Shown one piece after another: positions 2,336 to 42,400 of a stretch of 64,000 nt of DNA (positions are counted from its first letter, which is position 1; every line of letters begins with the position of its first letter). A program made the position numbers and the translations under genes. This stretch comes from a virus (lineage: Duplodnaviria > Caudoviricetes), in the IMG/VR virus record IMGVR_UViG_3300006734_000007, positions 1,907-65,906 of that record. The stretch is one strand, 5' to 3'. The notes below the pieces were generated by a model. The model saw only the letters and a program-made list of their open reading frames with translations, ran no database searches and had not been told where the DNA came from.

Positions 2336-2875
2336 ATGACAGAAACAAAAAAAAAGTTAACACCTAAAGAGCGGAAAGAAATGACTGCAACTTTAAGAAT
2401 TCATCAACAACCTATCTTTGATAATCTAGGTATTAGTGATGCTATTTATATTCCTAAAATGGCACACTATGTTAGTGGATTAGATGGTTTAAATATGGGA
2501 TTCTTTGAAAGTGAGTTAGATCATGGACAAGATGTTTATACAGAAAAAGTTAGTTCTTCTATGGAATCAGAAGATCCTGATAGAGTATTGTATAAAATAC
2601 CATATAATCCGCATTTTAAAGATGAATATGAAACATCTGAACCACTTTCTAATGGAAATGTAAGGTATTTTATACCTGTAGATGAAATGATTGTAGTAGA
2701 TACTAATATGACAATTAATGAAAATGAATTTAATTTTATGGATCCTGATCAAGATAGAGCAATGGATCAATTGTCTATAAGAGATCTTGCTGCAATTTTA
2801 TGGAAAAGACCGGTAAGTCAAAAACCGTGGTTAAACAATTTAATTAAAAAAGAATTTAATAAGAATGGCAACTAG
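2336..2875 (+). CDS. hypothetical protein
   Basis: 179-aa ORF overlapping the next start; no motif recognised. Confidence 0.7.
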   Translation: MTETKKKLTPKERKEMTATLRIHQQPIFDNLGISDAIYIPKMAHYVSGLDGLNMGFFESELDHGQDVYTEKVSSSMESEDPDRVLYKIPYNPHFKDEYETSEPLSNGNVRYFIPVDEMIVVDTNMTINENEFNFMDPDQDRAMDQLSIRDLAAILWKRPVSQKPWLNNLIKKEFNKNGN

Positions 2876-3548
2876 TATTTTAATTATTGGAGAATCTGGA
2901 TCAGGAAAATCTACTGCTGGTAGAAACTTAGATCCAAAAGAAACATTTTGGATAAATGTAGCTAACAAACCATTACCTTTTAAAGGTTGGAAAGGAAAAT
3001 ATCCTTTATTTGATAGCAAAAATAAAGAAGGTCATATCTCAAGTGTAGATAAACCTCATCAAATTTTAAATGTCTTGCAATATATTAATGACAGCCGTGA
3101 AGACATTAAAAATATTATTATTGATGATTGGCAATATATGTCTGCATTTGAATTCTTTGATCGTGCTGATGAAAGAGGTTATGATAAATTCACAGATATT
3201 GGTAAATGGCTAACCGCTGTTGCAAAAAAACCAATTGAAATGCGTGATGATATTAAAATATTCTTTTTAACACATGCAGAAGAAGCATATGATCAAACAG
3301 GTAAACGCAAAACAAAAGCAAAAACTATTGGAAAAATGGTTGATGAAAAACTAACCTTAGAAGGTTTGTTTTCTATTGTTTTATTTGCCAAAGTAAAGCG
3401 TACAGATGATGGAACATTAAATTATGTTTTTGAAACTGTAAACAACGGAAACAATACATGTAAAACACCAATGGGTATGTTTGAAAAAGAAACAATACCT
3501 AATGATTTAAATTTAGTTAAAGAAGCAATTGAAAATTACGAAAATTAA
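2865..3548 (+). CDS. AAA_24 / Sak4-like P-loop ATPase (recombination/annealing)
   Basis: ILIIGESGSGKST, INVANKPLPF, IIIDDWQY, GYDKF, KTIGKM, KTPMGMF. Confidence 0.85.
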   Translation: MATSILIIGESGSGKSTAGRNLDPKETFWINVANKPLPFKGWKGKYPLFDSKNKEGHISSVDKPHQILNVLQYINDSREDIKNIIIDDWQYMSAFEFFDRADERGYDKFTDIGKWLTAVAKKPIEMRDDIKIFFLTHAEEAYDQTGKRKTKAKTIGKMVDEKLTLEGLFSIVLFAKVKRTDDGTLNYVFETVNNGNNTCKTPMGMFEKETIPNDLNLVKEAIENYEN

Positions 3549-5744: not shown

Positions 5745-6196
5745 TGAGTAAAAAAGAAACTATTAAAATTGATTATGAAAATTATAAAAATGTAAGAGAA
5801 TTATTAAAATCAAAAGATAAAAAATCTGTAGCAATGGGATTTATGATTTTAGAAAATGCAGATTTTAAAAAATCTTTACCTTTTATCTTAATGATGTTGC
5901 GTGATATTTATGAAACAAGTTTTACAAAAGAAACTTTTGTACAAAATGAATTAAATAAATATGCACCTAAATTATTAAAAACTTTATTAAGTTACTTTAA
6001 GAGTACTAATATAGATTCTGTAACTAAAATTTCTTATAATTTTATTAACAGTGTTGTATTAAATAGAAATTCTAAAGAAGAATTAGAATTTTTTTACAAC
6101 GTAATGGGTGAAAAATTTTCATCTATTTTAAAAACATATGGTTTTGACTATATGGATCAATTTGAGATTAAAATAACCCCTAAAACAAATGGATAG
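5744..6196 (+). CDS. helical protein related to the C-terminal domain of the 8738 and 9876 ORFs
   Basis: YKNVRELLKSKDKKSVAMGFMILENADF matches the motif in the two downstream genes. Confidence 0.7.
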   Translation: MSKKETIKIDYENYKNVRELLKSKDKKSVAMGFMILENADFKKSLPFILMMLRDIYETSFTKETFVQNELNKYAPKLLKTLLSYFKSTNIDSVTKISYNFINSVVLNRNSKEELEFFYNVMGEKFSSILKTYGFDYMDQFEIKITPKTNG

Positions 6197-24960: not shown

Positions 24961-27900
24961 TTAACATTTATCTATTTGTTCAAGAACACTATCAATTTCA
25001 TTTTCCATATTTACTGCCCATTGTTTATCTGAAAAATCTTGATAAACTTCAATTAAATCACTTAAGCTAATATACTGAGAATTAGGATTAACATAAATAA
25101 AACTGTCAAATAATTGAGTAGACAATTCATCAAATAAATTAGAAACTAAAAATTGACCTGAGTCATTTATTCTAGATGCATTTAGATGATCCATTGCGTA
25201 TCCTACACTTAAAAATACTATTGGCTGTTTATCATTTATTTTAATTAATTCAGTTATAGATTTACTAATAACATCTTTAATTACATCCTGTTGACCTATT
25301 AATAAATCTCCTTTAGCATTATAAACCGGCAAAACATGTACATTATTAACACCTTCTATTGTATTTCCATTTTGATCCATTGCTAAACCAGTAATTGTTC
25401 CTGGTAATACAAATACTTTGGAAGGATTGTTTTCAATAATTTGTTTAAGATTAGTAGTGTCTGACATATTTAGAATCTCTGCATCGTAAGAATCTTCAAG
25501 TGCAGTAAACAACGTGTCTACTTTTAAACTATCTACATCTATTCTAGATTCTTCTCCTGTATGGAATACTTCAAACCCGGCACCAATTTCTAATAGATAT
25601 TCTATAAACTGAGTATCTACTCCTGGCATATCACCTACAACAAATCTTGCACCACTTTCATTTGCCTCAGCAATTTGAGATCTTGTTTCTTCAGATAATG
25701 GTGTATTTTTTAATTTACCATTTCTTGCTAGCATTACTATATCTCCAAATGACTTTTGACCATTAATTCTTTCAAAACTTACTCCCGTGTAAACACCATT
25801 TTTATTTTTAATAGTATCTTTTTCATCACCAGTTTGCTCTAATGAAGTTTTAGAACTTGAATTTCTATTTAAAACATTTAATTCTACAATAGCCGCGTCA
25901 GATTTTAATCTCATGGCTTGATCTTTTTCATCACCCCATTTAGTTCCTTTACCTGTATCAGCAGCTTTTACATTAATATCTGCATCTGACCACTTATTAC
26001 TATAACCTCCTTCATATTTAAACTGATCTTGATCAATTATAGACTGCCAATCTCTTACATCATCTGTAATAAAATCTAAATTTCTATTTCTAAAATTAGC
26101 ATTATTGATTTTGTTATGTTGCCTAAATTGATTTTGAAAATCCATAAGTACTGCTAAACCTATTGGACTATCAATTTCTTTAGCTAATTTATCTGTAGAT
26201 TTTTTTAAGAATGGCAATAAGTTTTCTTTAGGCATTACTCTACCAAGAGCAAATCTATTATCTATATTCATACCTGATTGCAAGAAAGCATATATAGGAA
26301 GCATTTCAAAGAACTTAGATATTTCACGATTTTCTTGAATTCCTTGAGGACTATCATCTAATACTTTCATTACATTTGGATCAGCTAATTCTCTAAATTC
26401 AGTAATAGCTGCATCAATTTCATTATTCTCTAACTTAGTATTTCTAAATTTAATATTGTGATACTTTACATTATTTTTAGAATCTGACTCATACTGAATA
26501 GATTCTAAAATAGCATAAGTATCTAACAGATTTGGATGGTTATTTATAATTTCTTTTACACGGTGCATAACAGAGTTATCACTATTAAACAGCTGGTGCA
26601 TGTTTAGAATATTATAAAGAGCTGTATCTTTTAACCATTCTTCATATACTTGACGTACTTGTCTTTTCTTTTTAGCATCAATACTCTCATCAGTTCTAGA
26701 ATCAATATCCTTAATACGATCATATCTTTTTGTAAACTCATTAGTCTTAATAAATTCAGCTAAAGGATTATTTAATCTTAATAATTCTCTTTCTATTGTA
26801 AACTTAACAAACTGATTATAACCTCTTGTATTTCTTTTAAATGTATTAGAATCTAATTCAGCTAATTGCAAAGTTTGATAATTTATATCTTCTAATATTT
26901 TTTCTGCTACTGCTGTTTTATCTTTATCTAATTTTATTTTTTTAGTTTTATCTGTAAAATTTTCTATACGACTTAATAAAACATTCAAAGGTTGTTGATC
27001 AATACTTTGAGCAAATGCTAAAGATTGGAATTGTTTTTTAAGAACATCTTTATCAATTAAGATCTCACCTGAATCTGGATTTACAATTACTCCGCGATTA
27101 GTTCTAGCATCTTTTAATAAATTTGAACTAATATTAACTTCATATCCTTTATATCCTTCTTTAATGTCTGTATCTAATACATCTTTTTGAAGAGCATATA
27201 CAACTAGATCATTTAAAAATTTATTTGCAAATCTTTCTTCAGTACCAAATTCAGATTTAATTTTAGATAGATTTTTTATATTTCCTGTTATACCAAGAAT
27301 ATATTTTAAAATTTTCTCAGATGTTCTTAATGGAAATACATTTTTCCAAAGATCTAATTGAAAACGTTGAATATCAAATGAACCAATTGGTGATTCATTT
27401 AAAATAGCATCTATAATATATGAAGGAAATACAGTATTTGTATATAAGTCTTCTTGCTTTTCAATTCTTTTAGCTGCCTCGTATAATGTTACAGATTTAG
27501 TTGTATCATAGTTTAAAGTAGTTTTTAATTTTTTGTAATCTTGTCCTATTTCTTCTATTTCTAAATAATGCAAAAATAAATCTCTTGCATCCATCATTGC
27601 TGCATTACTACTTGTAGGATCTGTTTTAACAACTTTATCCAAAGTTTTTGCATCTATAGATTTACCTTTAAGTTTTTTCTTTAATCTATTATTCATATCA
27701 TGAATTATAGACATATCTCGATTCTTAACAGCTTGAGTACTATTAATTACATTATAATCTAGAAGCATTTCTTTTCTAATTTGTGTTCTAAGATTCATGT
27801 AATCAATTTCTTTAGATTTATCAGTTTTAAGTCTGTTTTTATTATTTGCTTTAGAAAGAGCACTTTGAGCTTTTCTTAATCTTTGTCTATACTCTTCAAC

Positions 27901-30900
27901 AAGCGGATTTGAAACAAAGTCTACTGCAAGTTTTACAGGAACACCCATTTCTATTAAGAATAATAAAGTAGGCGCAATAACTTTATTACCATTAACATCA
28001 AAAATCCACCAATCTTTAGATACATCTACCCAACCATCAATAAGCATACTTAAGTTTCTACCAATTGATTCTTCGCCAAAAGCATCATATAAATGAGATA
28101 ATGAAACTACATCATACTCTTTATACTTAAGAGTATTATGAGGTAAGAATATATTTATTTCTCTTGCTTTATTAATATCTCCTTCATATAATTCTAGCAT
28201 AAATGCAAGATTATCTAATTTATCTTTAACAAGTTTAGATCTGCTTTCTGGATCAGGATATTGATTTTCTAAATCATCAATTTGTGCTTGAATTTTACCT
28301 GTTTGCATTTCCTCTTTAGCTATTTCATAAGCTTCTAGAGATACATTATAAATAGGATTTAAATGTGCACCTACACGATCTAAAATAGTATTGAATGCAT
28401 TTTCTACTGCACCTATTCCAAGTACTGCTTTACCTTCTGAGTTAACATCATGAATATGCATGTTATAAGTAGGTGAAATTGTAGAAGATCTACTAGGTTT
28501 AGATAATTTTTTTCTTTTACCGTTTTCATTTCTTTGATAAGAAAGCATAGAATTATAAGCACCTGGTCTATCTTCTTTCTTTTCTCTCATTTCAGCTGCC
28601 AACATTTTCATTGGATCAGCATTATTTGGAGTTAATAACGTATGATACTTAAGAGGATTTGAAAGCATTGTCCAAAGTCCAATCATTAATTCATTTTCAA
28701 TTGCTTTAACAGACTTACCTTTTAATTCAAGTTCTAATTTTCTTAGTTTATTATTTAAAGGTTCTAAAGCTTTATCACGTTTTTCTATGATCTTTTGGTA
28801 CTCAGGATTATTTTTAACTTCATCTGAATTTTTAATTTCTTTTTCTAAAAATTCAATTTGAGATGATAAAGTTGTAATTTCTTCTCTAAGTTGATCTAAT
28901 TTAATTGGATCAATAGGTACAAGACCTTGCTTAAATCCTTCTTCATACATATCAACTTTATCACTCATTTCATCTCTCTTATCACGTAAAGGTTGAATTG
29001 TACTATTACCAATAGCTTTATATACTTTAGCTATTCTGTTACCAAACTTTTGATGAGTCTTTTTAACTTTTTTCTTAACGCTTTTAATATCATCTTTAAT
29101 TTCATATTCATCTCTAACAGATTTAGAATTAAGTACCATAGTAGGTTTGCCATGCATCAAAGAAATGTTAGCCATTAATAATGTAAGTTTATCAATATCA
29201 AAGTCACCACCAGACTTAGCTACTAATTCAGATGGAGCAATTAATATATTACCTTCAGAATGTGGTAAAAACTGTTTAACATGGAAGAATTCCATTGAGT
29301 TATCTTCCTGAACTGGAATACGTACACCTACTAATGTAATAAGCATTAGATTCTCTTTTAGAGATCTCCATTCTGGGTCATTGATTAATTCATTTAATCT
29401 AACCAATGATTCTTTTTCTAAAATATTACCATCTTCATCTTTAACATATACAGGATCTCCATCCATATGAGTTAGATACAATAGATTATAATAATCTCCT
29501 TGCATTGCAATTTTAGCATCTGCTCCTATAGTTCGTTCATTATTAGCAACCTCATATCTAGTAAAATTGGTTTTCTTTCTTTCTGTATATGCTTTAGCTT
29601 GCAACTTGGCATCTTCCATAGAGTCAACCAAGATTATATCTGCTTGTTCACCTGTACCATCTATAATTGTATTATGAGCATAATATTCTCCATATATCAT
29701 TATAGAATCTTTGTACATTTTACCTTTAACTCTTTCACCATCTTTAGTATCTAGAGTTATATCATCTTTATTAATGTGTTTATGTTCTCCGGTTCTAGGA
29801 TCTTTTACATAAATGTATTTATGATCACCATCAATACTTCTTACAATTACATCAGCAGTCTTTTCTAAATCCCCTTGAGTAGTAATTGTTCCTTCGAATT
29901 CTCTAGCTGCTTGATAATACTCAAGATCATTAGTTCCATGTTTAGCTTTCTGTTCATCAGTCGGCTTACTTGGTTCAAATAAAGTTGTAGCAAGCTGAAT
30001 CAACATTTCACCATTTGGTCTTTGTCTTACAAGTGTATTGTTTATAAGAGCAGTTAAAGACTTTTCAATAACTGGTGTAACAGGTGAAATAGAAATGTCA
30101 TAAAGAAGGCCATCCCCTTTAGAGTTAACATCAATCATATCTAGATCTGTTGTAGGAAGCCCTGCATTCTTAAGTTCTCTCTTAAGTAAATCCACTAATG
30201 ATTTAATTTTATTTATTTCACGCGTACCATTTTTAATATCTTCTTCTGTCCAACCTGTAGACTTTACAAGGACTTTTTTCTTTCTGTCAATTAATTCTTG
30301 GATGTTATTCTCGTACTGAATAATCTCTGTATAAGCTTGAGACTTTGCAAGTTTTTCAACTTCTTCTAGTTTATCCCATTCAGTTTTTCTTTTTGCAGGA
30401 TCAACGTCAGGCATAAAATCAACAGGTACACCTGCTTCCATATAACCTTTTTCTACAAGCTTTCTCATCTGAGAAGACATCGTATTCTTACGCTTAAACT
30501 TACTAGCTACATCTAACTGATTCTTAAGATATTCTAAATGTATAGTATTTGCTTTATAGTATTCAGTAGCCGGATCATTTAAATCTAAAATAGGTGCTTC
30601 ATCTATTGTACGCACACCTTTTCCAAAATCTTCTTCATTATAAAGTATACTAGCTTTTTTAGTATTCTTATCTACAACTGTAGAAATTTTACTTCCTGAT
30701 AAATGCAAAGCAATAGCAATCTGCTGTTTAACCATATTGTTATGAAGTATCTCAGCATTAGTATTTTCTATTACATTAGGTACTAATGGTGCAACTGAAT
30801 ATTTATGAAAAGCATGTGCCGGCAATCCCATCATTTTTGCAAGAGGTCCCCAGTACTGGAATTTTTTTGAAGGGAAGAACTGAACATATTGATTAGCATA

Positions 30901-33900
30901 TATAGTCTCGCCTTTTATAATAGCATTATAGAGCTTATCTTGTTCAGGTGTCCATGATCCTTCTAATTCAGATAAAATCTTATACCAATCAATTGTTATC
31001 CAACCTTGACCGTCACCTTCCTCCATGTTTCTATAAGGCTTGACAGCTTCTTCTGCAGCAACTTTAGCAAGTTTAGCAGCTTCCTTTTTATTTTTCTTAC
31101 CTCTTTTTCTAAAGATATTTTCGTAATACTTTTCTAAATCTTCTTGTATTCTATCTACATAAACAGATGTTACTTCTGTTTCTCTCATTACAGCTGTGCG
31201 CAATGTTCCATCAAAAGGTATAGCTTTTAGATCTGGGAAGTTTATGTTTTGATATGTTGGTACAGCATCCTTACCAAAGTATCTTTCATTTACATAATCT
31301 ATTGCATCTTCATCTGTCAATAATTGTTTACCATCAGAGTTGACACCTGGATTACGTTTAAAAAAGTCTTTATACTGAGAAGCAAATCCATAGAATATTG
31401 TATCAACCTGTATTCTATGAATAGTTGAATTTGCTAAATAAGATTTTAATAAAGCATCGGCTCTTTGAGGTCTACTAACTTTACTTAATTCTATACTCTT
31501 GCTATCAGCTGCACTATTAATATGATCATTCATTAAATTAGAATCAAAATAGATCATACCATCCATTCTTTGCTTAAGAGTTTCAAGTTCTGAATTCAAA
31601 TAGTTTAACAAAAATGCATCAATCTCTCTACTTACTTCTAGATCAGTATCATATAATTCTTGTACGCTTGTAGCTTTTTTTAACTTAGCTTTTAAAGTAT
31701 CGCTAAATATATCATCAAATAATGCAAAGTCTTTAGCGGCAGCTTCTTCTATGACATTGCCATCTTTATCTACTTTATCTTCTGTATAACCTATTATAGA
31801 TTCATTATTAGTATTTTCTTTTGCTGCTTTTATTACATCTAACTCCATCTGAATAAATGGAATCATTTGATTAATAAAGTTTTGCTCACCGTTTGTTTTA
31901 GTTTCTGTTTCTTGTACTAAGAAATCTACAGTATCTATATATAAGTGACTATGAAATTTAGCTATATCATCTGTAACAATTTTAGTTGTCCCAGATTCAT
32001 CTGTAACTGTTACAGCAACAATTGTACCTTTATCAGCTGGTGTTGGATTTTGTCCCATACCTGCTAATAGTACTCCATAGATGTCATTCATTTGACGACC
32101 AAATGAATCTAGATTAGAAGTTTTTTCACTATAATCATAATCTATATATCCATTTTCTTTTAGGTTAGTTATTCCTGCTAAACTAGTTACATTAATCTTA
32201 ACACCTTTTCTTTTTGGAATATCTGGTTTACTAAAATCATAAATACTATTTAAGAAAGCCATTGTTGCACTATCATTATGCATTCCATTTATTTGTTGTT
32301 TAGTAAATGGATTATTTTCAGGATTTAAATGTGCCATTTGACGCATTGCAACAAGCTCATGAAAACTTTCTGATTCATTCATATAAAGGGCCATTCTTGT
32401 TAAAGAAGAATGTCTACTGTCTGCATATTGCGTATCACCTTTTGCATTTCTAAGAGCTGTAGTAGAATAATTTCCTGAATACTTAGCCTCCGCATCAAAA
32501 ATAGTATTTAGGTTTTTACTCTCACTCGGAAGTTTATTATCACTAGATCTAAAAAATGCAATTATATCATTAATAGGTTTAATTTTTTTATTTTTCTTGG
32601 TTTTATCATTATAATCTTTCAGCTTTTTATAAAGCATGTCTAATCTAGCAGAATCTAAAATTATTTGCTGAGATTTAGTATTATTTGATACTGGTATACC
32701 AAGATCACGTAAAAACAAAATACCTGTTTCTGAAAAATTAGAGTTCTTGTATTTATCAACTATACCTTGAACATCTAAAACATTTTCATTATTATCCGTT
32801 AGTTTAATAAATGGATGATTACGCACAGTTTTAAAGTGATCTGTAAAATCTCTTTCAGCAGCTCTAAACTGAGCCTGACTTTGACCAAATAAAACTCTGT
32901 ATGTTGTTCTTTTTTGTTTAGTCTTTTTTCTAACTCCGTCTACTAATTTATATACAGGCTCAAATACTCTTTCTATAGTCGTAGTATATAAAGGCTTTTC
33001 TGCCATAAACATTGACTGCCAAAACTTAACCCACAATGAATGTGATAAAGGATTCTTGACATCTAATGGTCCAAGCTTGTGTAATAGATCTTCTTCAATC
33101 CATTTATTTTTAGGAGAAGTTTTAGAAAGTTCTAATAAAGCGTTGCGCATTCCTCTTCTAGATGATTGATCTTTGACTGCAGAAACAACTGTTCTCCAAG
33201 CTTTACCTGGATCAACTAGTTTAGGATATCCCATTATATTTTCTACAAACTCACCTTTATCATCTCTCATATGTGCGCTGTATATAATAGATTTAATTTC
33301 AGCAGAAGCAAGATCTTTTTGAGATATTGTACTTGTATCTATAGAAAATAACGGTGTATCTGTATTTACAAAATCACTTAGCTCATCTCTAGATAATTCA
33401 AATGCAGGTTTAATATACTCTGAATTCTGTAAATGATAAGCAACCGTACCTTTAGTACTCTTTCCTGTAATTACATCAAGAATTTGTTCTACATCTCCAA
33501 ACTGTTCAATAGCATAATCATGCAGTTTAATTTGATGCTGTATTTTATTTCTTTGTTTGATATCAGCAGTGTCATCTAATTGCTCTTTGAGTTCTTTTCT
33601 TTTATCCTTTAGAGTTTTGTATACGTTTAAATACATCTTTGGAAGGATCTTATCCGGCGCAGTATATAGTGCACCTACTAACATCTGAGCAACCTTTCTT
33701 TTATTCTCTTCTTTAGAAGCTCTTGCTAATGATATCTGTTCATTTAGTACAGTTGATATAATAGAATCAATAGACTGAGAAATCTGTAGAGCATCGGCAT
33801 CATTGATTGTAGGTCCTCCGTCTTGTAATGGCTCAATCCCTTTATTTAATTGACCCCATCCTGGCATTACATTTAACTCAGAAGGAGAATAGATTACAAG

Positions 33901-36900
33901 ATCTTCATCTCGTAGAACTCTCATATTATTATATAAGATACCTACATTTCTAACTACTACTGGATCAATAACTATATCATTAGGATTAACTCCTGTAAAT
34001 AACCATTTTAAAAAATTAAGAATTCTTCTAAATATAGAAGCTGTTTGAGGTCGGTTAGTAAGTACTTTCTTACCATCACTCAACATGTATGTTCTGTAAT
34101 CTTCTGCTAAATATTCATCTGCCGCTCTCCATCTGTCATAATTTTTAAGCGCATTTATATCTTTATTATTAGCTTTTGCATATTCTTCCAAGATCTTAGG
34201 ACCCAATGCAGTAGATAGTAATTCTTCATACATCTGCACTTTCTCATCTTGTGTCAAATACAATTGTGTAAATCCGTGATAAGCTTCATGATATAGATCT
34301 GTTTCATCAGCTCCTTTATATAATTTAATACCATTTTTACTCCAACTTGCAAAAGCATTAGAGTTTACAATACTAAATAAATTATCAAAATCTAGTGGTG
34401 AAGTTTTACTAATAGGACTAGATTTAAACCAAGCCATAGCATTTTTTCTTTTCTTTCTATAACCTGGCTTTAGTCTTTCCCATCTAATTCTTTTTAGCTT
34501 AGATTTAAATATTGAGTCATCTTCTGGGTCAAAATTAAAATCTAAATCATCTTCATCAGGTAACTTTTTATTTATATCTGAAGAGTTATTTGGATCAGTA
34601 TAACCGTTAAGTTTATTATTTAAATCATCTAACTTAAGTTCTAAAGATGCAATATACTCATCAAGTTCTGAAAGATCTTCATCAGTAATATCTTCATTAG
34701 ACTCTACTTTTTTTCTTAATCTAAATACAATAGGTAATAGACTCATCAAAAGGGCCCCAGGAGCACCTGGAGTTTCAGCTGGTGTTTCTAATGGAGTTTC
34801 AGAAACTATATTACCTTCTGCAGGAATAATAAGTGCACCACCGGTCCATCCCTCTGGGTTAAATCCTGCCCATTGTTTTGAATCAATAACACCTTCTTTT
34901 GCTTTTGGTTTAGCACTAAATGATCCTACGTCATGATAACCAATAGTAAGATCTCCAGGTTTAAGATTATAAGCTTTTATAATTTCTAAACCTTCCCACT
35001 CAATATTATTTATAGTACCGGCAAAATCTCTAATAATTGTATTACCGTGTACATCATTAAAAATAAATACTACAGATCCTCCGCTAAATCTACTATATCC
35101 ATTTCTATCTTTAAAGATTAAATATGTACCTGAACCATCTTTTTTAACTACTTCTTTAATAGTAGATTTAAATCCTTTAGGTGTTTGTGTTTTACTGAAT
35201 TCAATATCACTAAACTTCATCTGTCTCAATGCAGATACAACAATATCTGAATCAACAAGATCTTTAGCTCTTTTGTATTTTAGATTTACACTACCATCAG
35301 GATTTCTTGTAAATGCCGGAACATAGTCATTGTTTTCTTTAGCTTTTCTTAAGTAAACTTTATTATTTTCATGAGAATATTCTTTATCTGCTGCAACACT
35401 TGCATCTAATAAAAAATGTCCTACACCAATAACACCATTTACTTTAATTCCTTCACCTGGCAAATCTTTTTTAACAGGTGCTGGTATATATCTAAAACCT
35501 TCTGCGTTATCCCACTGACTTCTGTATGACATCAAACTATCTGAAGGATTATAGCTATCAGGCACTGTTCCAATTAGTTGGAAGAATCTATCTACTTTAG
35601 GTGTTTCTTCAATTACAGGAGCAACTTGCTCTTCAACAATTAATGCAGCTTCTTTAATATCAATAAGACCTTTTTTATCTAAATATCTTTTAGCCCACTG
35701 CGCTTGTGTATCAGGTAATAAAGTTTCTACAGAATTTTCTAAACTAAAACTTAAAGATCCATCATTATTAAAACTCCATGATGTTGTTCCTACAGTTACA
35801 GCTCCTGCAATAATTAAAGCCATTATACCTTTAAGAACTTTTTTAATTGCTTTTGCTAAAGCTCCTGGAAAATCTGGTAAAGTATTACCATGGCGTTTTA
35901 TATAATCTTTTACATTTTCAAATAAAATTTGTTTTATTTCTTCATTTGTTCCTTCTACTAAATCTTGATCTGCTTCAATTTCTTTTTTTAATTCTTTAAG
36001 ATCTTCTTCATCAATTACATCATCAATAACCTCTGCAATTTTTTCATCAGTTATTGGTTCTTCAGTAGTTTCTTCTTTAGAAGACTGCTGCTTTCTTTTT
36101 CTTAAATCTTCTCTTAGTTTTTTAGCTTCTTCTAATTCACGTTTTGTTTTATCTATTTCCTCCTGAATTGAGGTTTGTTCTTCGTTTGTATTTCCCGGAT
36201 TAACTTTTGTGCCCCCTTGCCCCTCAACAACACCACTCTCAGGACCAGTCTTAGAATCATCTAACTCTAATCTTGCAACTAAATCAGCTTTATTACCGCT
36301 TACTTTTAATCCTCTCTTAGATAACTCAGCTTTTAATTCAGCTTTAGTTAATGCACTATAACCTGTAGCTTGTGGTTGACCTATCATTTGATAAATAGGA
36401 TTTCCCTCTTTGCCAGGAAGTGTAGATTTCCCTATTATTTTTGCTTCACCACTTTTTACAAGCCTTTTCCATAATGCTTGTGATGCAGGAGTTTGATCAC
36501 TATCTGATTTTAATGGAGATAATCCTTTTGAAATTCTGTCTGAATTTATTTTTCTATATAACTCTGTAGCAATACCTTTACCTCTTAATCCAGGATGTAT
36601 TAATACATTTGATACAGAACCAGCTGGATATAATTTTAATTCTTTTCTAGCAATAATTAAAGCTCCTAATATTTGTCCGTCATAATGAATAACATGTATA
36701 TCTGAATTACTTGTTATACTATTATTTGGATCTAGAAGTTCTCCTGATACTACTTCTAAACCTAATTTTGATTCTTTAGATTCTACACTATTAATAATAT
36801 CTGAAATATCTGATGATTCATCTAAACCAGATTCTCCTAATTTTTTAAGTTCTGAGACTAAATCTCCATCAAATTTTTTACTTTCTATTCTAGTATCAGC

Positions 36901-39471
36901 TTGTGGTTGTCCTTCTACAACAGGTTCATTAGGCGCATCTAATATTTCAGATAGGTTTATATAAATGCGTTCTTCTTCTGAATCAAAATAATTTGGATCT
37001 TTTAGAAATTCAATTGCTGTAAAATTTCCTACTTTATAATTCTTATATGTAGGTTGAGACTTAGTCAATTCTAATCCCTCCATTACATTGCTTCCAAACT
37101 CTACCCACACTCCGGTATTTGATGCAATGATTCCTGTAGGGACTTCACCAAACATGTTTATAATTTTATCTAATAGCTCAGATTTATTTTCAATATTAAC
37201 TGTAAAACCATCTTGATCTAAAACAGCATCACCTCCCGCATAGTTTTTAAAAGTATCATCTACTTCTTTTTCACGGACCATTCTAATAATATCTGCAACT
37301 TCTTCTTTAGTTCTATTTTTAGAAATGCTAGTTACAAATTGACTAGGACGTGTCGCATACTTTTGTGCTTTAGTCCACCATGATTCTTTCTGGCTTTCTC
37401 TGGCTCTTTTTGGATCACCAAATAATTTTAAATTAGCCGGAGCATTATCATACAAATCTGTTAATGTATGCTCAGGAATAGAAAATGAAAAATAACCATT
37501 CAATCCAACAATTGCTCTTTCTGCATTTAATTTTAAAGGAGCTGTTGAATTTTGCATTATGTAATCATAGTAATCAACTTGATCAAACTGTAGACTACCT
37601 GGTTTACTTTTCTCTACATTTAAAGCATAGACAATTCCACTATTAGGTTTAAGTTTGATATTAACTTGACCTGCTTTAGTATTATAAATACTTCCCGGTT
37701 TGTAAGGCTCTGTTAATACATTAATGATCTGCTTGCGGATTTTTTCCTGATTGTTTTCACTTATAATAACATCTTTTCCTTTCTTAACCTTTATAGCAAT
37801 TTCACCGGTTTTATCTTTAACAGAAACAGTGACACTATCCTTACCTGTATAAACTAAACTTCTAAACAATGCAACACGTTGAGTATTGTTCATCTTTTGA
37901 CCACTAATTTTAGCATCAGTAGTTATAATATCTGCTAAATATTCTGCTTCTTCTTGTGTCCAGTTTCTTTGCTGCAGTGGAGCTGATATATTAAAACCTG
38001 GTAATCTTAAATAAATACCACCTTTAACCTCCCAACTGCTTACATCATTATCCGCAACTTTTATTGCAGTACGTGGATCAATATCAGACTGAGCCCAATT
38101 TACCTCAGACATAACAGGTCTTTTATCTTGAGGCATATCTAAATCAAAAGGTGTAATACCTGTATTAGAACTTATAATATTCATTTCTATTACAGAACCT
38201 GGATCAGTCTCTAGTCTTTTTTGTATTAGATACATGATCTCTAATTCTTTTTGCTGCTCAACTGCAATAGCTTCTATTAAACCTTCTTTAGCTTTATTAG
38301 ACAGTTTAGGCCATTCTTTTAAGTTTTTAGATTTAGCAATTTCTTCTGGGCTTTGAATTGCTTTAGCAAAACTAGTTGCATATCCTGTTCCTTTTTGTAC
38401 AACTTTAGATTGATTATAATAAATAGGACTACCCTGAGATGAATCTTTAACAACATTATAGTTTTCATCAAAGAAAAGAATATTGTTATTATTATCCGTA
38501 ATAACTAATTGTGTACCATTTTTATAAAGAGTAAATCCATCTTTCTTAGATGTTGGCGCCCATAATGATTTCTCAGTTGTACCAACTTTACCTCTTAAAG
38601 TTTTTACCTTACGCTTTACTTGATCAGTGTTACCATATTCTTCTACAGCTCTCTTCTCAAAATTATCTACAAATGCTTCTGTAATTTTTACATTAGATTG
38701 CCATGCCCATGCTTTACCATCAAGAAGCTTTCTGTTTCTTTTAGATAGTACATCATTCTTATTATCCATTCCATCAGGATATAATTCTGACATTCTAACA
38801 GCAGCTATCTTAAATCCTTTATGACCTCCTATAGTAATTTTACTTGGATCTTGTTCAGACCTTAGTGCTTTTTTAAATACATCTAAGAATCCATATTCAA
38901 ACTCTTGATCCGGATCTTTAATATCTAAATATTTACCATTGACATCCTGCAAACTTTGCTGACCTGTGCTAGATAGAATAGAAGGTTTCTTAAAACTAAA
39001 TTGCCCAATCTCTTTTACCAACTGTCTAAAAGCTGCAGCAAACTTATTTGATTTTTTTTCACTAGGTGGTTGCTTGTTTGTTTCATCTGATTCAGCAACA
39101 ACCCAATTTGCAATACCTGTATCAATAATCTCAGGATCTGTTATTTCTTCTGTAGTATATGTTTTTAGTACATAATCTAATTCATCAGTTTTATCTGTTA
39201 TTTCAAATAAATCTTGGATGTTAAATTTAGGAGGAAGCAAAGACTTATCATACATAGCAGCTGATATCAACTGATATGGGAGAACTTGTACGTATGATGC
39301 TGCTTTTTTAGGATCTTCTGTTTCATTATAGATATACTCATAAAGTTCCTGAGCAACATCATCAAAATTAAATTCTTGATCGTTAGCCTTAAACTGCTTT
39401 AACTTTGCTGTAGCATATCCAAAAACAATACCTACTTCTTCTGCACTAATTTGTATATTACAAAGGGCCAT
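24961..39471 (-). CDS. virion-packaged single-chain two-barrel RNA polymerase with accessory domains (4836 aa)
   Basis: GVRIPVQ...SGGDFDIDKL catalytic loop (~29188-29325), EGDGQGWI (~30997-31020), zincin HEAYH (~34276-34290). DFDID is the motif of crAss-like phi14:2 gp66-type RNAPs. Confidence 0.92.
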   Translation of the reverse strand: MALCNIQISAEEVGIVFGYATAKLKQFKANDQEFNFDDVAQELYEYIYNETEDPKKAASYVQVLPYQLISAAMYDKSLLPPKFNIQDLFEITDKTDELDYVLKTYTTEEITDPEIIDTGIANWVVAESDETNKQPPSEKKSNKFAAAFRQLVKEIGQFSFKKPSILSSTGQQSLQDVNGKYLDIKDPDQEFEYGFLDVFKKALRSEQDPSKITIGGHKGFKIAAVRMSELYPDGMDNKNDVLSKRNRKLLDGKAWAWQSNVKITEAFVDNFEKRAVEEYGNTDQVKRKVKTLRGKVGTTEKSLWAPTSKKDGFTLYKNGTQLVITDNNNNILFFDENYNVVKDSSQGSPIYYNQSKVVQKGTGYATSFAKAIQSPEEIAKSKNLKEWPKLSNKAKEGLIEAIAVEQQKELEIMYLIQKRLETDPGSVIEMNIISSNTGITPFDLDMPQDKRPVMSEVNWAQSDIDPRTAIKVADNDVSSWEVKGGIYLRLPGFNISAPLQQRNWTQEEAEYLADIITTDAKISGQKMNNTQRVALFRSLVYTGKDSVTVSVKDKTGEIAIKVKKGKDVIISENNQEKIRKQIINVLTEPYKPGSIYNTKAGQVNIKLKPNSGIVYALNVEKSKPGSLQFDQVDYYDYIMQNSTAPLKLNAERAIVGLNGYFSFSIPEHTLTDLYDNAPANLKLFGDPKRARESQKESWWTKAQKYATRPSQFVTSISKNRTKEEVADIIRMVREKEVDDTFKNYAGGDAVLDQDGFTVNIENKSELLDKIINMFGEVPTGIIASNTGVWVEFGSNVMEGLELTKSQPTYKNYKVGNFTAIEFLKDPNYFDSEEERIYINLSEILDAPNEPVVEGQPQADTRIESKKFDGDLVSELKKLGESGLDESSDISDIINSVESKESKLGLEVVSGELLDPNNSITSNSDIHVIHYDGQILGALIIARKELKLYPAGSVSNVLIHPGLRGKGIATELYRKINSDRISKGLSPLKSDSDQTPASQALWKRLVKSGEAKIIGKSTLPGKEGNPIYQMIGQPQATGYSALTKAELKAELSKRGLKVSGNKADLVARLELDDSKTGPESGVVEGQGGTKVNPGNTNEEQTSIQEEIDKTKRELEEAKKLREDLRKRKQQSSKEETTEEPITDEKIAEVIDDVIDEEDLKELKKEIEADQDLVEGTNEEIKQILFENVKDYIKRHGNTLPDFPGALAKAIKKVLKGIMALIIAGAVTVGTTSWSFNNDGSLSFSLENSVETLLPDTQAQWAKRYLDKKGLIDIKEAALIVEEQVAPVIEETPKVDRFFQLIGTVPDSYNPSDSLMSYRSQWDNAEGFRYIPAPVKKDLPGEGIKVNGVIGVGHFLLDASVAADKEYSHENNKVYLRKAKENNDYVPAFTRNPDGSVNLKYKRAKDLVDSDIVVSALRQMKFSDIEFSKTQTPKGFKSTIKEVVKKDGSGTYLIFKDRNGYSRFSGGSVVFIFNDVHGNTIIRDFAGTINNIEWEGLEIIKAYNLKPGDLTIGYHDVGSFSAKPKAKEGVIDSKQWAGFNPEGWTGGALIIPAEGNIVSETPLETPAETPGAPGALLMSLLPIVFRLRKKVESNEDITDEDLSELDEYIASLELKLDDLNNKLNGYTDPNNSSDINKKLPDEDDLDFNFDPEDDSIFKSKLKRIRWERLKPGYRKKRKNAMAWFKSSPISKTSPLDFDNLFSIVNSNAFASWSKNGIKLYKGADETDLYHEAYHGFTQLYLTQDEKVQMYEELLSTALGPKILEEYAKANNKDINALKNYDRWRAADEYLAEDYRTYMLSDGKKVLTNRPQTASIFRRILNFLKWLFTGVNPNDIVIDPVVVRNVGILYNNMRVLRDEDLVIYSPSELNVMPGWGQLNKGIEPLQDGGPTINDADALQISQSIDSIISTVLNEQISLARASKEENKRKVAQMLVGALYTAPDKILPKMYLNVYKTLKDKRKELKEQLDDTADIKQRNKIQHQIKLHDYAIEQFGDVEQILDVITGKSTKGTVAYHLQNSEYIKPAFELSRDELSDFVNTDTPLFSIDTSTISQKDLASAEIKSIIYSAHMRDDKGEFVENIMGYPKLVDPGKAWRTVVSAVKDQSSRRGMRNALLELSKTSPKNKWIEEDLLHKLGPLDVKNPLSHSLWVKFWQSMFMAEKPLYTTTIERVFEPVYKLVDGVRKKTKQKRTTYRVLFGQSQAQFRAAERDFTDHFKTVRNHPFIKLTDNNENVLDVQGIVDKYKNSNFSETGILFLRDLGIPVSNNTKSQQIILDSARLDMLYKKLKDYNDKTKKNKKIKPINDIIAFFRSSDNKLPSESKNLNTIFDAEAKYSGNYSTTALRNAKGDTQYADSRHSSLTRMALYMNESESFHELVAMRQMAHLNPENNPFTKQQINGMHNDSATMAFLNSIYDFSKPDIPKRKGVKINVTSLAGITNLKENGYIDYDYSEKTSNLDSFGRQMNDIYGVLLAGMGQNPTPADKGTIVAVTVTDESGTTKIVTDDIAKFHSHLYIDTVDFLVQETETKTNGEQNFINQMIPFIQMELDVIKAAKENTNNESIIGYTEDKVDKDGNVIEEAAAKDFALFDDIFSDTLKAKLKKATSVQELYDTDLEVSREIDAFLLNYLNSELETLKQRMDGMIYFDSNLMNDHINSAADSKSIELSKVSRPQRADALLKSYLANSTIHRIQVDTIFYGFASQYKDFFKRNPGVNSDGKQLLTDEDAIDYVNERYFGKDAVPTYQNINFPDLKAIPFDGTLRTAVMRETEVTSVYVDRIQEDLEKYYENIFRKRGKKNKKEAAKLAKVAAEEAVKPYRNMEEGDGQGWITIDWYKILSELEGSWTPEQDKLYNAIIKGETIYANQYVQFFPSKKFQYWGPLAKMMGLPAHAFHKYSVAPLVPNVIENTNAEILHNNMVKQQIAIALHLSGSKISTVVDKNTKKASILYNEEDFGKGVRTIDEAPILDLNDPATEYYKANTIHLEYLKNQLDVASKFKRKNTMSSQMRKLVEKGYMEAGVPVDFMPDVDPAKRKTEWDKLEEVEKLAKSQAYTEIIQYENNIQELIDRKKKVLVKSTGWTEEDIKNGTREINKIKSLVDLLKRELKNAGLPTTDLDMIDVNSKGDGLLYDISISPVTPVIEKSLTALINNTLVRQRPNGEMLIQLATTLFEPSKPTDEQKAKHGTNDLEYYQAAREFEGTITTQGDLEKTADVIVRSIDGDHKYIYVKDPRTGEHKHINKDDITLDTKDGERVKGKMYKDSIMIYGEYYAHNTIIDGTGEQADIILVDSMEDAKLQAKAYTERKKTNFTRYEVANNERTIGADAKIAMQGDYYNLLYLTHMDGDPVYVKDEDGNILEKESLVRLNELINDPEWRSLKENLMLITLVGVRIPVQEDNSMEFFHVKQFLPHSEGNILIAPSELVAKSGGDFDIDKLTLLMANISLMHGKPTMVLNSKSVRDEYEIKDDIKSVKKKVKKTHQKFGNRIAKVYKAIGNSTIQPLRDKRDEMSDKVDMYEEGFKQGLVPIDPIKLDQLREEITTLSSQIEFLEKEIKNSDEVKNNPEYQKIIEKRDKALEPLNNKLRKLELELKGKSVKAIENELMIGLWTMLSNPLKYHTLLTPNNADPMKMLAAEMREKKEDRPGAYNSMLSYQRNENGKRKKLSKPSRSSTISPTYNMHIHDVNSEGKAVLGIGAVENAFNTILDRVGAHLNPIYNVSLEAYEIAKEEMQTGKIQAQIDDLENQYPDPESRSKLVKDKLDNLAFMLELYEGDINKAREINIFLPHNTLKYKEYDVVSLSHLYDAFGEESIGRNLSMLIDGWVDVSKDWWIFDVNGNKVIAPTLLFLIEMGVPVKLAVDFVSNPLVEEYRQRLRKAQSALSKANNKNRLKTDKSKEIDYMNLRTQIRKEMLLDYNVINSTQAVKNRDMSIIHDMNNRLKKKLKGKSIDAKTLDKVVKTDPTSSNAAMMDARDLFLHYLEIEEIGQDYKKLKTTLNYDTTKSVTLYEAAKRIEKQEDLYTNTVFPSYIIDAILNESPIGSFDIQRFQLDLWKNVFPLRTSEKILKYILGITGNIKNLSKIKSEFGTEERFANKFLNDLVVYALQKDVLDTDIKEGYKGYEVNISSNLLKDARTNRGVIVNPDSGEILIDKDVLKKQFQSLAFAQSIDQQPLNVLLSRIENFTDKTKKIKLDKDKTAVAEKILEDINYQTLQLAELDSNTFKRNTRGYNQFVKFTIERELLRLNNPLAEFIKTNEFTKRYDRIKDIDSRTDESIDAKKKRQVRQVYEEWLKDTALYNILNMHQLFNSDNSVMHRVKEIINNHPNLLDTYAILESIQYESDSKNNVKYHNIKFRNTKLENNEIDAAITEFRELADPNVMKVLDDSPQGIQENREISKFFEMLPIYAFLQSGMNIDNRFALGRVMPKENLLPFLKKSTDKLAKEIDSPIGLAVLMDFQNQFRQHNKINNANFRNRNLDFITDDVRDWQSIIDQDQFKYEGGYSNKWSDADINVKAADTGKGTKWGDEKDQAMRLKSDAAIVELNVLNRNSSSKTSLEQTGDEKDTIKNKNGVYTGVSFERINGQKSFGDIVMLARNGKLKNTPLSEETRSQIAEANESGARFVVGDMPGVDTQFIEYLLEIGAGFEVFHTGEESRIDVDSLKVDTLFTALEDSYDAEILNMSDTTNLKQIIENNPSKVFVLPGTITGLAMDQNGNTIEGVNNVHVLPVYNAKGDLLIGQQDVIKDVISKSITELIKINDKQPIVFLSVGYAMDHLNASRINDSGQFLVSNLFDELSTQLFDSFIYVNPNSQYISLSDLIEVYQDFSDKQWAVNMENEIDSVLEQIDKC
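36367..36909 (-). repeat. 12-bp direct repeat pair (AGCTTGTGGTTG on +, encoding QPQA) flanking a GNAT domain
   Basis: Identical copies at 36367-36378 and 36898-36909; 14 of 15 nt match when the Gly codon is included. Confidence 0.8.
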
Positions 39472-39472
39472 C

Positions 39473-42400
39473 TTAACATTTCTTTTTAGCTTGTTTACCT
39501 AGATCTTTTAAGGCATCAAGAGGATTATCATACTTATCTGCATACTCTTTCATTTGCTCTGGAGAAAGTTTAATATCAACATTCTCATCTGAAGTATCCT
39601 GTTCTTCAGTAGTAACAGGTTCTACAGGTGCATCTTCTTTCATAGGTACAAGGTTTGTATAAAATTTATCAAGGGTTTCAGTCATTTCTTTATTAGTTTC
39701 TTGGACCTTAAATTTAATAAATTTGGTTTTATTAGTTATCCTTTTAGTTAAGATTTGTATGAGGCCATGTTCTTTATGCATCATAGATATAATCTTATTT
39801 TTAGGAGCTTTATTTATTATATCTTTAATAGAAACAGCAGTCGTCCCTTTTAGTTCTGTTTTTCTTTTAGCAATTAAGTTTGCAACAGCTCCGTCATTAG
39901 TATATCTAGTAACCGGTAAATCTTTGGTTTCTTGAAATATATAATCTTCTATTGCTAACAGTGCCTGTAAAGAATCTGCATTTTTAATTTGATCACCAAA
40001 CTCCTCCATCAAATCTATTGGTTCTATAGCAGTATCTTCTTCTTCAATAAATTCAAATTCAGTTAGAACTAATTGCTTTTCAGGAGATTCTATAAAGTTG
40101 TTTAAAATATTAGGTACTAGATAATTAGTACCATCTATTTGCATAATAGTACTTCCTTTAACTGTATCACCTTCTTCTAGATCTGTTTGTAATCTAAGAA
40201 CTTCAAATAAAAGTTGCATTGATTGTGCTCTATAACTTAAATCTTCATTTATTTGAGATAAGATTGTATTACCATCTTCATCTACTGGATTCAATGTCTT
40301 AAGACTATTTATAAGTTCATCAAAATTTAGACTAGGTTCTAAAACAAAAGTATAGTCATCACCTTGATACCTTACAATTTGCTGAGGGTTTTCTAAATAA
40401 TCTGGAAATAATCTCTCTACTACATCTGGTGTTAATAATATAATTCCTTCATATAGATCTTCTAATAATTCGTCACCTAAAAATAGATCTGTATCTTTAA
40501 TAGGAATTGGTTCAATATCTGATTCTTCTTCTTCTTTTACTTCTGTGCCAAAAATACCTGGAGAAGCTGTTTCAGTTACAGTAGATGGTGTTAGTATTTC
40601 ATTTATAAAAGGCATGTAAGGAAAGTTAGATCCTTGCTGAATTAATCCAGCATAACTAACTTTTGTAATTTGACGATTTTCTTTATCTAAATTAAGATCA
40701 AAAGATGCAATGTTTATATTAGCTCTTACTCCTGTAATGTTCTCAAGCATATTTTTATAACCGGATTGCTGATAACCATGTTGCTCTCTTTTACTAATTC
40801 TTTCGCCAACTATTTTAGCCATGTAACTTGGTTCAGTATAACCTTTGGTTAAGACTATTTCACCTGTACTTCCAACTATTCTATTAATTGCAGGATTTTT
40901 AGAAGATTTAATATCTATTATTTCATATCTCTTTTTAACAGGATCCCAAAATAATAAGTCAATTTCACCACCCACTGGTTGTCCAGTTGGAGGATTTTTA
41001 TCAAATACTAATGGGCCTTCCATTACAAACTCCCATCCCAATGCTTTAATTTCTTCTGCAAAAGCTTCAAATGCTTTTACTAATTGTTTTTTAGCTGTAT
41101 CTGTTAGATCTAGCATTGTTGGTCCTATAGGAATAACAGGTTCTGTAGCAAGTTTAGTTTTTTCAATAGATGTAATATCTGACTTGCCATCAAAAACACC
41201 AACAGTTCCTTTTATAACATCATTAAGAGGTTGAATCTTATCTCGATTATTTTTAATTTCTTCATTACTTTGAAAAGGTTTAACTCCTTCCGCCGTGCTA
41301 AGAGTAATATGAGGAAATTCATTTTTAGATAATGGATTATCTACAAGTAATACATCTACTTTATCTGTAGTAAGTCTTCCAACTACTCTAATTTCCATTT
41401 CTTGACCGATAGGTAGATCTGAAACATCTGAAGGTTTAAATTCAATTGTAGAATGATGAGAAAATAAATTTGCAAGAGCTTGTCCGTAAGCTGCAACTAA
41501 CTCATCAGTATTAAAAAAGATTCCACTATATACTACAGGACCTTGATAACTAGTAGTAGTTTCAGGAACTCCTTCAAAAAACTCTTTACCAAATGCATCT
41601 AATGTGTTACCTGCAAATGCATTATCTTCATACTCAGTTAGATCAAACTCAGATTCTTTTATTTGTACAACTGATCCATCTTCTAACTTAACTTCCCAAA
41701 CTGGTTCTGCAGTTTGATCTTCTAAATCTGCTAATTCATCTCCTAAAATACCATCTTGACCAGTTGCTTTAATCCTAACTTTATTTCCTGTTCTAGGATC
41801 CATTTCCATACCAATAATAGATGTCATACTTGTACTACGGACCCACTTTCCATTTACTTTAATAAAGTAACCGTGATCTGTAGTTTTAACACCAAACTCT
41901 AAAGCTTCTTCATCAGTCATACTACTGATCTGCTTTATTTCAGTACCCTGAACTCTCTTTAGTTTTTTATGTCCCTCAGATTTTGAAACACCTGAAAAAG
42001 GCATTGATATATCTTCATCAGTAGGTTTTTCTTCTGTAGGATCAATATCTTCTTTCTTTTTTCTGCCTCCTTTTTTTTGTCCTTTTCTTTGTTTAACTTG
42101 TTCATTATGATCATCAATTAAAAGTAAAACATCATCTGGTCTACTTTCAATCCATTCATCTATGTTAGCAAATCTATCAGGATTATTTTTCTGAAACTTA
42201 GCAAACAATAATTCTGCCTGCTGTTGTATAGTATCTGGCCAGGTTAATCTATTGCTTAAACCATCACTATCTAGCAGAGTTAATATTTCATCTACCGTTT
42301 TTTTCTTTTTTTGTTTTCTTTTTGCTTCTCGTTCTTGCTTTTCTCTTTCTAAAGAAGCTTCTCTATTTGCTTTATCAAAAGCTTCAAAGGTTTCAAACCC

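Follow-up and report, generated by a model that had tools for sequence, protein, structure and literature searches.

Organization of the GNAT and SAP interval in P0001

The stretch of DNA analysed here (the window) covers 64,000 bases of a single viral contig, IMGVR_UViG_3300006734_000007, which is 65,906 bases long, has a G+C content of 29.5% and lacks a terminal repeat. Its minus strand encodes P0001, a giant open reading frame (ORF) of 4836 amino acids (a.a.), in which a GNAT-fold module and a SAP motif lie between short repeated peptides. The elements of this interval are listed below, with confidence values given as the predicted local distance difference test (pLDDT).

24961..39471, minus strand: P0001, a giant ORF (4836 a.a.; the largest of eight) for a fused virion polyprotein of the crAss type, in which all of the modules lie
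36898..36921, minus strand: linker 1, VVEGQPQA (a.a. 851-858), disordered (pLDDT below 50 over model residues 1-23, which are a.a. 835-857)
36382..36897, minus strand: GNAT-fold module (a.a. 859-1030), in which two leader helices precede the GNAT core (RGKGIA at a.a. 963-968), assigned by fold and alignment
36367..36381, minus strand: linker 2, GQPQA (a.a. 1031-1035), aligning with the NKPTE/NKPSV tail that closes the module in relatives
36256..36360, minus strand: SAP motif (a.a. 1038-1072), beginning YSALTKAEL, assigned by Pfam and helices
36217..36231, minus strand: third linker copy, VVEGQ (a.a. 1081-1085), disordered (pLDDT below 50 over model residues 243-248)

A preliminary description of this DNA had proposed GNAT and SAP cassettes inside an RNA polymerase (RNAP), bounded by direct repeats that act as the joints of an integron-like array. 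The order that it gave, VVEGQPQA, GNAT, GQPQA, SAP and VVEGQ, was recovered in full, with all five peptide elements at the positions above, and its 12-bp QPQA repeat, AGCTTGTGGTTG, is identical at 36367 and 36898, the only two copies in the window. GNAT and SAP are the only Pfam-recognizable domains in P0001, GNAT being below the cut-off; Pfam searches of seven P0001 segments and of its giant relative P0003 (see below) gave nothing useful.

The second module proved to be a canonical SAP motif, as had been described: PF02037 matched a.a. 1038-1069 with E = 6.7e-13 and 48.4 bits against a cut-off of 23.9. AlphaFold2 modelled two confident helices there (model residues 209-218 and 227-240, with residues 203-240 as the SAP helices), and by sequence the module had weak matches to THO1 SAP domains in the PDB. 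SAP is a canonical DNA-binding motif, and DNA binding is predicted for this copy from its sequence.

For the GNAT module, the Pfam scores remained below the cut-offs, at 19.7 bits against 27 for Acetyltransf_7 (E = 1.1e-3), 16.9 against 20.7 for Acetyltransf_1 and 13.1 against 23.6 for Acetyltransf_10. The AlphaFold2 model built from a 14-row alignment (A2), by contrast, had a mean pLDDT of 81.8 and a confident alpha/beta domain at residues 28-195 (block means mostly above 87). Foldseek searches of the PDB returned 1y9k as the top match (E = 3.2e-5; template modelling score 0.54 on the target) and 13 matches at E ≤ 1e-3, and the top matches have the GNAT fold, being mostly acetyltransferases together with the acyl-homoserine-lactone synthase EsaI. 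The neighbours of the module in the ESM Atlas are viral clusters, in which 27-100% of the members carry Acetyltransf_1. The acetyl-CoA motif A of GNAT proteins reads Q/R-x-x-G-x-G/A. It is satisfied by R963-G-K-G966-I-A968, and its central Gly (G132 of A2) is invariant in the 14 rows. The GNAT assignment thus holds by modelled fold and motif, although not by Pfam cut-offs, and the model supports a GNAT fold despite the sub-threshold scores.

The relatives of the GNAT module are 29-39% identical to the window row of A2, and both giant proteins of phages and small proteins contain them. As judged from the sequences, the module represents a divergent, phage-specific GNAT family, mostly found inside giant proteins of phage contigs. 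Taken together, the models support GNAT and SAP as separate, autonomously folding modules on disordered linkers. All three repeat peptides lie in low-confidence, presumably disordered stretches; the block of linker 2 has a pLDDT of ~74-80.

The GNAT module is an in-frame cassette of giant phage proteins

A HMMER search against 1.84 billion representatives gave 308 matches at E ≤ 1e-3, of which 150 were listed. GNAT-type matches occur in giant proteins of 1158-2983 a.a. (P0004, P0005, P0006, P0008, P0010, P0091, P0098 and P0135) and in the small proteins P0011 and P0016. SAP-type matches are mostly eukaryotic-looking multi-SAP proteins, and among the 150 matches listed none combines the GNAT family of P0001 with SAP. 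A search of IMG/VR added eight further GNAT loci. In P0005, a PD-(D/E)XK nuclease domain stands just after the GNAT module.

Comparison of these proteins revealed the GNAT module as an in-frame cassette that has repeatedly been transferred from one giant phage protein to another, the exchange points lying in linkers. Among 11 GNAT-bearing proteins (55 pairs), 22 pairs are at least 60% identical within the module; the downstream 120 a.a. are retained in only 3 of these pairs, and the upstream 120 a.a. clearly in 4. P0091 and P0098 are ~92-96% identical from 'EEVKPTE' to 'MNKPT', with unrelated sequence immediately outside and C-terminal regions that are 57% identical. Similarly, P0004 and P0006 are 85-95% identical over the module and 58% identical in the N-terminal region, with unrelated sequence directly beside the module. 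At the DNA level, the IMG/VR loci L002 and L004 are ~97% identical through the module, and the identity ends inside the linker that encodes NKPTEVKVTE. In the alignments, a Pro-containing linker (QPQA, QPQQ, QPKQ or KPTE) precedes the module and M-x-x-P-x-x closes it, and the 'IGQPQA' of P0001 occupies the position of 'NKPTE' or 'NKPSV' in its relatives.

The N-terminal region surrounding the modules had no close relatives in a phage tblastn search (a.a. 700-1250), an IMG/VR scan (a.a. 600-1300) or a JGI metagenome scan (a.a. 600-850), and a protein search with a.a. 700-1200 returned P0005 and P0049 only. When GNAT and SAP were searched together against the phage collection by tblastn, the sole match, an internal virion protein of Klebsiella phage KpV48, was non-significant (E = 0.02) and was rejected.

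Two further forms of the module were noted. At L004:2700-3010, GNAT is split over two frames, with the leader in one and the core, from 'ITNNQ', in another, which is either a frameshifted, decaying copy or an assembly error. The distant relatives P0046, P0072 and P0132 contain two to three copies of a shortened GNAT-like module per protein, and the N-terminal region of P0046 and P0072 has an 'EMEH' motif.

Natural variants in metagenomes

Among 24 listed runs from 16 studies, nine contained at least 0.20 of the sampled words, and each of these carries a marine, sponge or marine-sediment metagenome label. We compared contigs of four runs, from four studies, with the window over 32,000-39,600. 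One contig of run X8 (5235 nucleotides (nt), covering 36017-39600 with 163 differing letters) keeps both GNAT and SAP, and has 12 nt inserted behind 36372, which changes linker 2 to GQPTTQPQA. In one contig of run X2 (depth 7.4), 36377 is joined to 36916 with 10 other letters in between, a net loss of 528 nt that leaves the frame intact. With the reference flanks, the joint reads ...NEPVV-KSDK-PQA-TGYSAL..., a GNAT-less form whose ends fall inside linker 2 and linker 1. One contig of run X6 (2322 nt) fits 36916-39206 with 2291 letters, and the fit ends at the place of the X2 joint; this end at 36916 is a weak hint of a GNAT-less form.

Deletion junctions of 531 bp in metagenomes had been predicted from the repeats. 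An in-frame GNAT-less contig was indeed found in X2, but the exact 531-nt repeat-mediated deletion was not seen in the contigs of the four runs, and contigs cannot reveal rare forms; the missing 531-nt product therefore carries no weight. The lower depth of X6 and X9 over the GNAT interval reflects gaps in the contig cover and was not used as evidence. The X2 joints 33727>35970 and 35043>35977, with the 'go-back' entries near 35970, were discarded as spurious, having sides of at most 21 letters in the charged low-complexity spacer.

The linker repeats at the DNA and peptide levels

The 12-nt DNA identity is statistically ordinary, because the window contains 28 distinct direct repeats of at least 12 nt whose copies are no more than 600 nt apart (12-mer pairs number 51, compared with 17.4 in 20 shuffles), the 951-nt module interval contains 11 direct-repeat families, the linker repeat (15/16 nt) being one of them, and identical codons for the two QPQA copies are expected from codon usage with a probability of 0.10. 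The two VVEGQ copies have two of five codons in common, against 2.8 expected, and differ at 3 of 15 nt. Compared as peptides, the repeats do not look like chance, because VVEG occurs only twice in the ~15,500 a.a. of the eight giant ORFs, flanking the GNAT and SAP modules both times, and because a peptide of at least 4 a.a. common to both module edges is found in only ~2% of control windows. The VVEGQ and QPQA peptides are inter-module linkers.

Around the third linker copy, the VVEGQGG stretch (36200-36235, a.a. ~1080-1090) has 50% G+C over 36 nt, against 29.5% for the genome, and the copy uses the rare codons GAG and GGG (the latter 43 of 958 Gly codons). Linker 1 is bracketed by an 18-nt inverted repeat (36798-36815 and 36936-36953; 89% complementary, 120 nt apart), probably a by-product of the Ile/Ser/Asp-rich coding sequence.

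P0001 is a crAss-like giant protein with an RNAP-homologous region

Downstream of the SAP module, P0001 contains the following regions.

35887..36216, minus strand: charged, E/K/D-rich low-complexity spacer (a.a. 1086-1195; 23 E, 15 K and 11 D in 115 a.a.)
34627-35862, minus strand: membrane-flanked domain (a.a. 1204-1615), with hydrophobic segments at a.a. 1216-1232 and 1572-1583
33994..34356, minus strand: HExxH region, a candidate zincin-like peptidase with HEAYH at a.a. 1728-1732, assigned by homology to Crassvirales giant ORFs
29122..31038, minus strand: RNAP-homologous region (a.a. ~2812-3450), with DFDID at a.a. 3423-3427 (nt 29191-29205), assigned by tblastn

A tblastn search with a.a. 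2790-3450 matched 65 phage records, including cr108_1 (E = 2e-16), KP06_gp44 of Carjivirus (E = 7e-8) and g066 of phi14:2, annotated 'Catalytic RNA polymerase subunit' (E = 1e-4); by sequence, the region had no match to PDB chains or PHROGs. With a DFDxD motif within the gp66-homologous part, P0001 is predicted to carry a crAss-like virion RNAP region of the phi14:2 gp66 type. The HExxH region (a.a. 1706-1826, with HEAYH at 1728) matches Crassvirales giant ORFs upstream of their RNAP parts; it has no Pfam match, and one neighbouring ESM cluster has LPD23 in 20% of its members. Crassvirales records contain ORFs of 4491 and 4328 a.a. of the same kind as P0001, and the source of P0001 is a marine crAss-like phage.

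The GNAT and SAP modules lie upstream of the HExxH region and ~1,750 a.a. upstream of the RNAP-homologous region. The positions of the RNAP and HExxH homologies and the literature on fused polyproteins therefore place them in an N-terminal extension, outside the polymerase proper; their supposed location inside an RNAP is correct for the ORF but not for the RNAP-homologous part. The closest full-length relatives, P0002 (5748 a.a.) and P0003 (4556 a.a.), share only a.a. 1204-1615 and the RNAP region with P0001. They have none of its first 1200 a.a. in common. The N-terminal third is highly mosaic. The order in P0001 is thus an N-terminal region of unassigned role, GNAT, SAP, the charged spacer, the membrane-flanked domain, the HExxH region and RNAP. 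The membrane-flanked domain is the best-conserved part relative to P0002 and P0003 (55-58% identity, against ~24-42% in the RNAP region) and has no Pfam match. Near the C terminus, a Rossmann-like motif, 'GARFVVGDMPGVD', is visible at 25615-25653 (a.a. 4607-4619), also without a Pfam match. The giant ORF of cr113_1 that is homologous to P0001 is annotated 'DprA-like DNA recombination-mediator protein'; the C-terminal ~350 a.a. of P0001 have no Pfam match.

From 17,238 to 64000, the minus strand holds eight consecutive giant ORFs of 2572, 4836, 2063, 1315, 1214, 898, 1702 and at least 909 a.a., ~46.7 kb in total. Six of the eight were scanned with PHROGs: five, including P0001, had no family, and the 898-a.a. 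ORF matched families of unknown function only. Rfam and tRNA scans of the window found none, and no ORF of at least 80 a.a. lies opposite the GNAT and SAP interval. The plus strand encodes, within 1-17 kb, a DnaB-like helicase, a Sak4-like annealase, a primase, a RuvC-like resolvase, a MoxR-type ATPase, an exonuclease and a DNA polymerase, of which three are relevant to recombination.

2865..3548, plus strand: Sak4-like single-strand annealing protein (phrog_2872, E = 1.7e-70)
5301-5744, plus strand: RuvC-like resolvase (PHROGs)
10981-11991, plus strand: exonuclease, exonuclease VIII-like (PHROGs)

In the same region, the ORF at 6189-7520 (plus strand) has as its best PHROG a family named 'HNH endonuclease' (phrog_1314, E = 5.7e-67), yet an HExxH-like 'HELLH' motif is visible in it. 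The MoxR-type ATPase gene comes after it, and the family name may mislead.

A model of module exchange and its alternatives

The reading that we favour, with a probability of roughly 0.6, is that the P0001 interval consists of two accessory modules on disordered Gln/Pro/Gly linkers within a mosaic N-terminal third, and that ordinary phage recombination shuffles the GNAT module. If P0001 behaves like phi14:2 gp66 and polyvalent proteins, it would be packaged into the virion and enter the host together with the DNA. At entry, the GNAT module could then modify a host target, or bind acyl-CoA, and SAP could tether the assembly to DNA. Module exchange would proceed by homologous recombination or single-strand annealing on short linker homology, or by illegitimate joining, possibly aided by the Sak4-like annealase, exonuclease and RuvC of the phage; selection for intact, in-frame modules would filter the products, with no dedicated site-specific system behind the exchange. 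The 16 ORFs scanned with PHROGs (P0001 included), which are part of the ORFs of the contig, matched a Sak4-like annealase, an exonuclease, RuvC, a helicase, a primase and a polymerase, and no integrase was among them; no inverted repeat was found at the module boundaries in the 951-nt interval. The cassette idea of the preliminary description is thus right in outline, and partly supported, whereas its integron-like mechanism is unsupported. In-frame gain and loss at the linkers stands for the GNAT cassette and its breakpoints, but a causal role of the 12-nt repeat, ordinary as it is, does not.

Several points weigh against the favoured reading. An identical peptide of at least 4 a.a. occurs on both module edges in 4 of 12 proteins, from three lineages (GQPQA in P0001, KPTEV in P0008, KPTEVK in P0010 and KPTE in P0098), against 2% of control windows; for P0091 and P0098, whose N edge fell outside the fixed edge windows, the alignment was used. 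This frequency exceeds the expectation for generic linkers, and the repeats themselves may thus have a role. The GNAT-less form is a single contig from one run, found at a likeness threshold of 80 and with 51 letters on its shorter side. The Pfam scores of GNAT are sub-threshold, and acetyltransferase activity is a prediction only. Virion packaging and delivery are drawn from homologues only, and the zincin fold of the HExxH region is unconfirmed, its single-sequence AlphaFold2 model having a pLDDT of 35.

The linker repeats might themselves be recombination joints, with DNA homology directing the in-frame gain and loss of cassettes in a domain-level array. Besides the flanking repeats in 4 of 12 relatives, this is favoured by the X2 joint, both ends of which (36377 and 36916) lie inside linkers, by the high-identity block of P0091 and P0098, edged on both sides by KPT(E), and by the DNA identity of L002 and L004, which stops within a repeated linker unit. 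The phage also encodes a Sak4-like annealase and an exonuclease, and enzymes of these kinds are able to act on short homology. However, the 12-nt identity has the 10% expectation from codon usage given above, the VVEGQ copies share only two of five codons, and 28 comparable DNA repeats exist in the window. In addition, the net loss at the X2 junction, where 10 foreign letters are present, is 528 nt, which is not the exact 531-nt product. It had been stated beforehand that relatives carrying the same domain without the repeats would speak against such joints, and this is what was found in part: 8 of the 12 GNAT-bearing proteins have at most three shared edge residues, and L002, although closely related to P0010 and collinear with it upstream, does not have the upstream repeat copy of P0010. 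Moreover, selection alone also puts surviving breakpoints in linkers. We therefore regard repeats as joints as unlikely. The same holds for the stronger form of the idea, in which linker codons are functional joints whose short homologies are deliberately kept. GNAT, SAP and other cassettes would then be rearranged in frame by the Sak4-like annealase and the exonuclease of the phage, both inside one ejected polyvalent protein and from one such protein to another; we doubt this form to a similar degree.

Three other explanations concern the origin or use of the peptides. The repeats could be relics of an internal duplication, or of a former tandem array of linker, helix pair and GNAT, that now serve as mere linkers. 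P0046, P0072 and P0132, with their two to three copies of a related short module (P0046 having junctions of the type ...YKMEGELVEGP...), would fit such an origin, as would the resemblance of a.a. 859-905 to a.a. 1036-1080 (local score 47 against 24.6±5.0, reached in 1 of 2000 shuffles). Yet the family-wide leader compared with the SAP profile gave an hhalign probability of 0.15%, so that the GNAT leader was rejected as a SAP paralogue despite its significant pairwise score and is kept as a minor rival only; among the 150 HMMER matches listed none has both domains, and P0046 is distant (32% identity over 83 a.a.). A duplication origin is, in our view, quite unlikely. Cleavage sites are another use that the peptides could have, if the HExxH peptidase of P0001 itself or a head protease cut VVE/G and/or QPQA and freed GNAT and SAP in the capsid or the host. 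Head proteases of the T4 type use sites with Glu at P1. The VVEGQ peptide is kept although 3 of 15 nt differ, a VVEG-like motif also stands upstream of GNAT in P0004 and L003, an HExxH region is present in the same ORF, and cleavage of crAss polyproteins and MPTase (metallopeptidase)-driven release of modules have been suggested in two papers (10.1101/2020.03.07.982082 and PMC5512222, respectively). Against this, the motif occurs at only three borders of the 4836-a.a. protein and in none of the other seven giant ORFs, natural variants alter it freely (VV-KSDK-PQA and GQPTTQPQA), the edge peptides of relatives are unrelated to it (KPTE, KPSV), and no protease gene was identified in the window; we consider cleavage very unlikely. 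Finally, pure coincidence, in which short Q/P/G-rich peptides recur in a very long protein, is already disfavoured and seems highly improbable. Shuffled P0001 does average 1.3 five-residue repeats within 300 a.a., and 12 at any distance, and the DNA repeat is ordinary, but here two different 5-mers overlap in one eight-residue linker and are repeated at the two module borders that follow, VVEG is found nowhere else in ~15,500 a.a., and the breakpoints of the natural variants fall in linkers.

Comparison with known systems

The closest concepts are the polyvalent protein and the fused crAss polyprotein, and P0001 appears to extend this known kind. In the text of PMC5512222 (Iyer et al. 2017), polyvalent proteins are giant, multidomain and thought to be codelivered with DNA, combine unrelated effector and DNA-binding domains in highly variable architectures, and include GNAT, a zincin-like MPTase and virion RNAPs among their components, with MPTase as a hub domain that is always fused to N4-like virion RNAPs. 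P0001, with GNAT, SAP, the HExxH region and RNAP in one ORF, contains at least two unrelated domains, as polyvalent proteins do. It differs from those in the same text, where the two GNAT families come from gammaproteobacterial (pro)phages and one Mediterranean phage, and from conjugative elements, the virion RNAP examples are N4-like and single-subunit, the term 'crAss' is absent, and linker-bounded cassette exchange is not described ('linker' occurring 0 times). One of its examples, an N4-like virion RNAP fused to an ADP-ribosyltransferase (ART) in Roseovarius Plymouth podovirus 1, resembles P0001 in joining a protein-modifying enzyme to a virion RNAP, but that polymerase is of the T7-like single-subunit type rather than the two-barrel crAss type, the enzyme is ART rather than GNAT, and there is no SAP (PMC5512222).

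According to passages of 10.1101/2020.03.07.982082, some crAss-like phages fuse three virion proteins into a 'huge polyprotein' that is 'likely cleaved', and orthologues of gp65 have a zincin-like domain. P0001 agrees with phi14:2 gp66 and the fused crAss polyprotein in DFDID, in homology to g066 and KP06_gp44 and in the similar size of Crassvirales ORFs, and its HExxH region upstream of RNAP corresponds to the zincin-bearing phi14:2 gp65 orthologues. Unlike these, P0001 has GNAT and SAP, which are not described in those passages (10.1101/2020.03.07.982082), and its N-terminal 1200 a.a. have no counterpart even in the closest giant relatives. Full-text literature searches, with supplements outside their scope, returned no paper on GNAT or SAP in a Crassvirales RNAP protein.

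Two other systems move segments between short boundaries. In integrons, whole genes are carried from site to site by a tyrosine recombinase that acts on structured attC sites. Like integron cassettes, the modules here are discrete units that are present or absent between short repeated boundaries; unlike them, the units are domains in one frame, the boundaries have no hairpin, the boundary peptides differ between lineages, and the 16 scanned ORFs include no integrase. In T-even tail fibre genes, domains are swapped through motifs, the 'His boxes'. There too, short conserved coding motifs edge the exchanged segments of phage genes, but those segments are receptor-binding and the motifs structural, whereas enzymatic or DNA-binding modules and disordered linkers are involved in P0001.

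Implications

The giant transcription or 'cargo' proteins of crAss-like phages are almost wholly unannotated outside the polymerase core. With P0001, the proteins that a crAss-type phage may inject come to include a candidate host-modifying enzyme and a DNA tether. In addition, the exchange of a domain cassette at linkers, in frame, is cleanly illustrated by natural cases, among them variants from marine metagenomes in which the cassette is present or absent or the linker differs in length. Two questions become directly testable: what the acetylation targets of the GNAT cassette are, and whether modules are shuffled as a result of linker homology. Were the functional-joint reading true, these phages would possess a recombinase-light cassette system that works at the level of domains and varies the proteins delivered first into the host.

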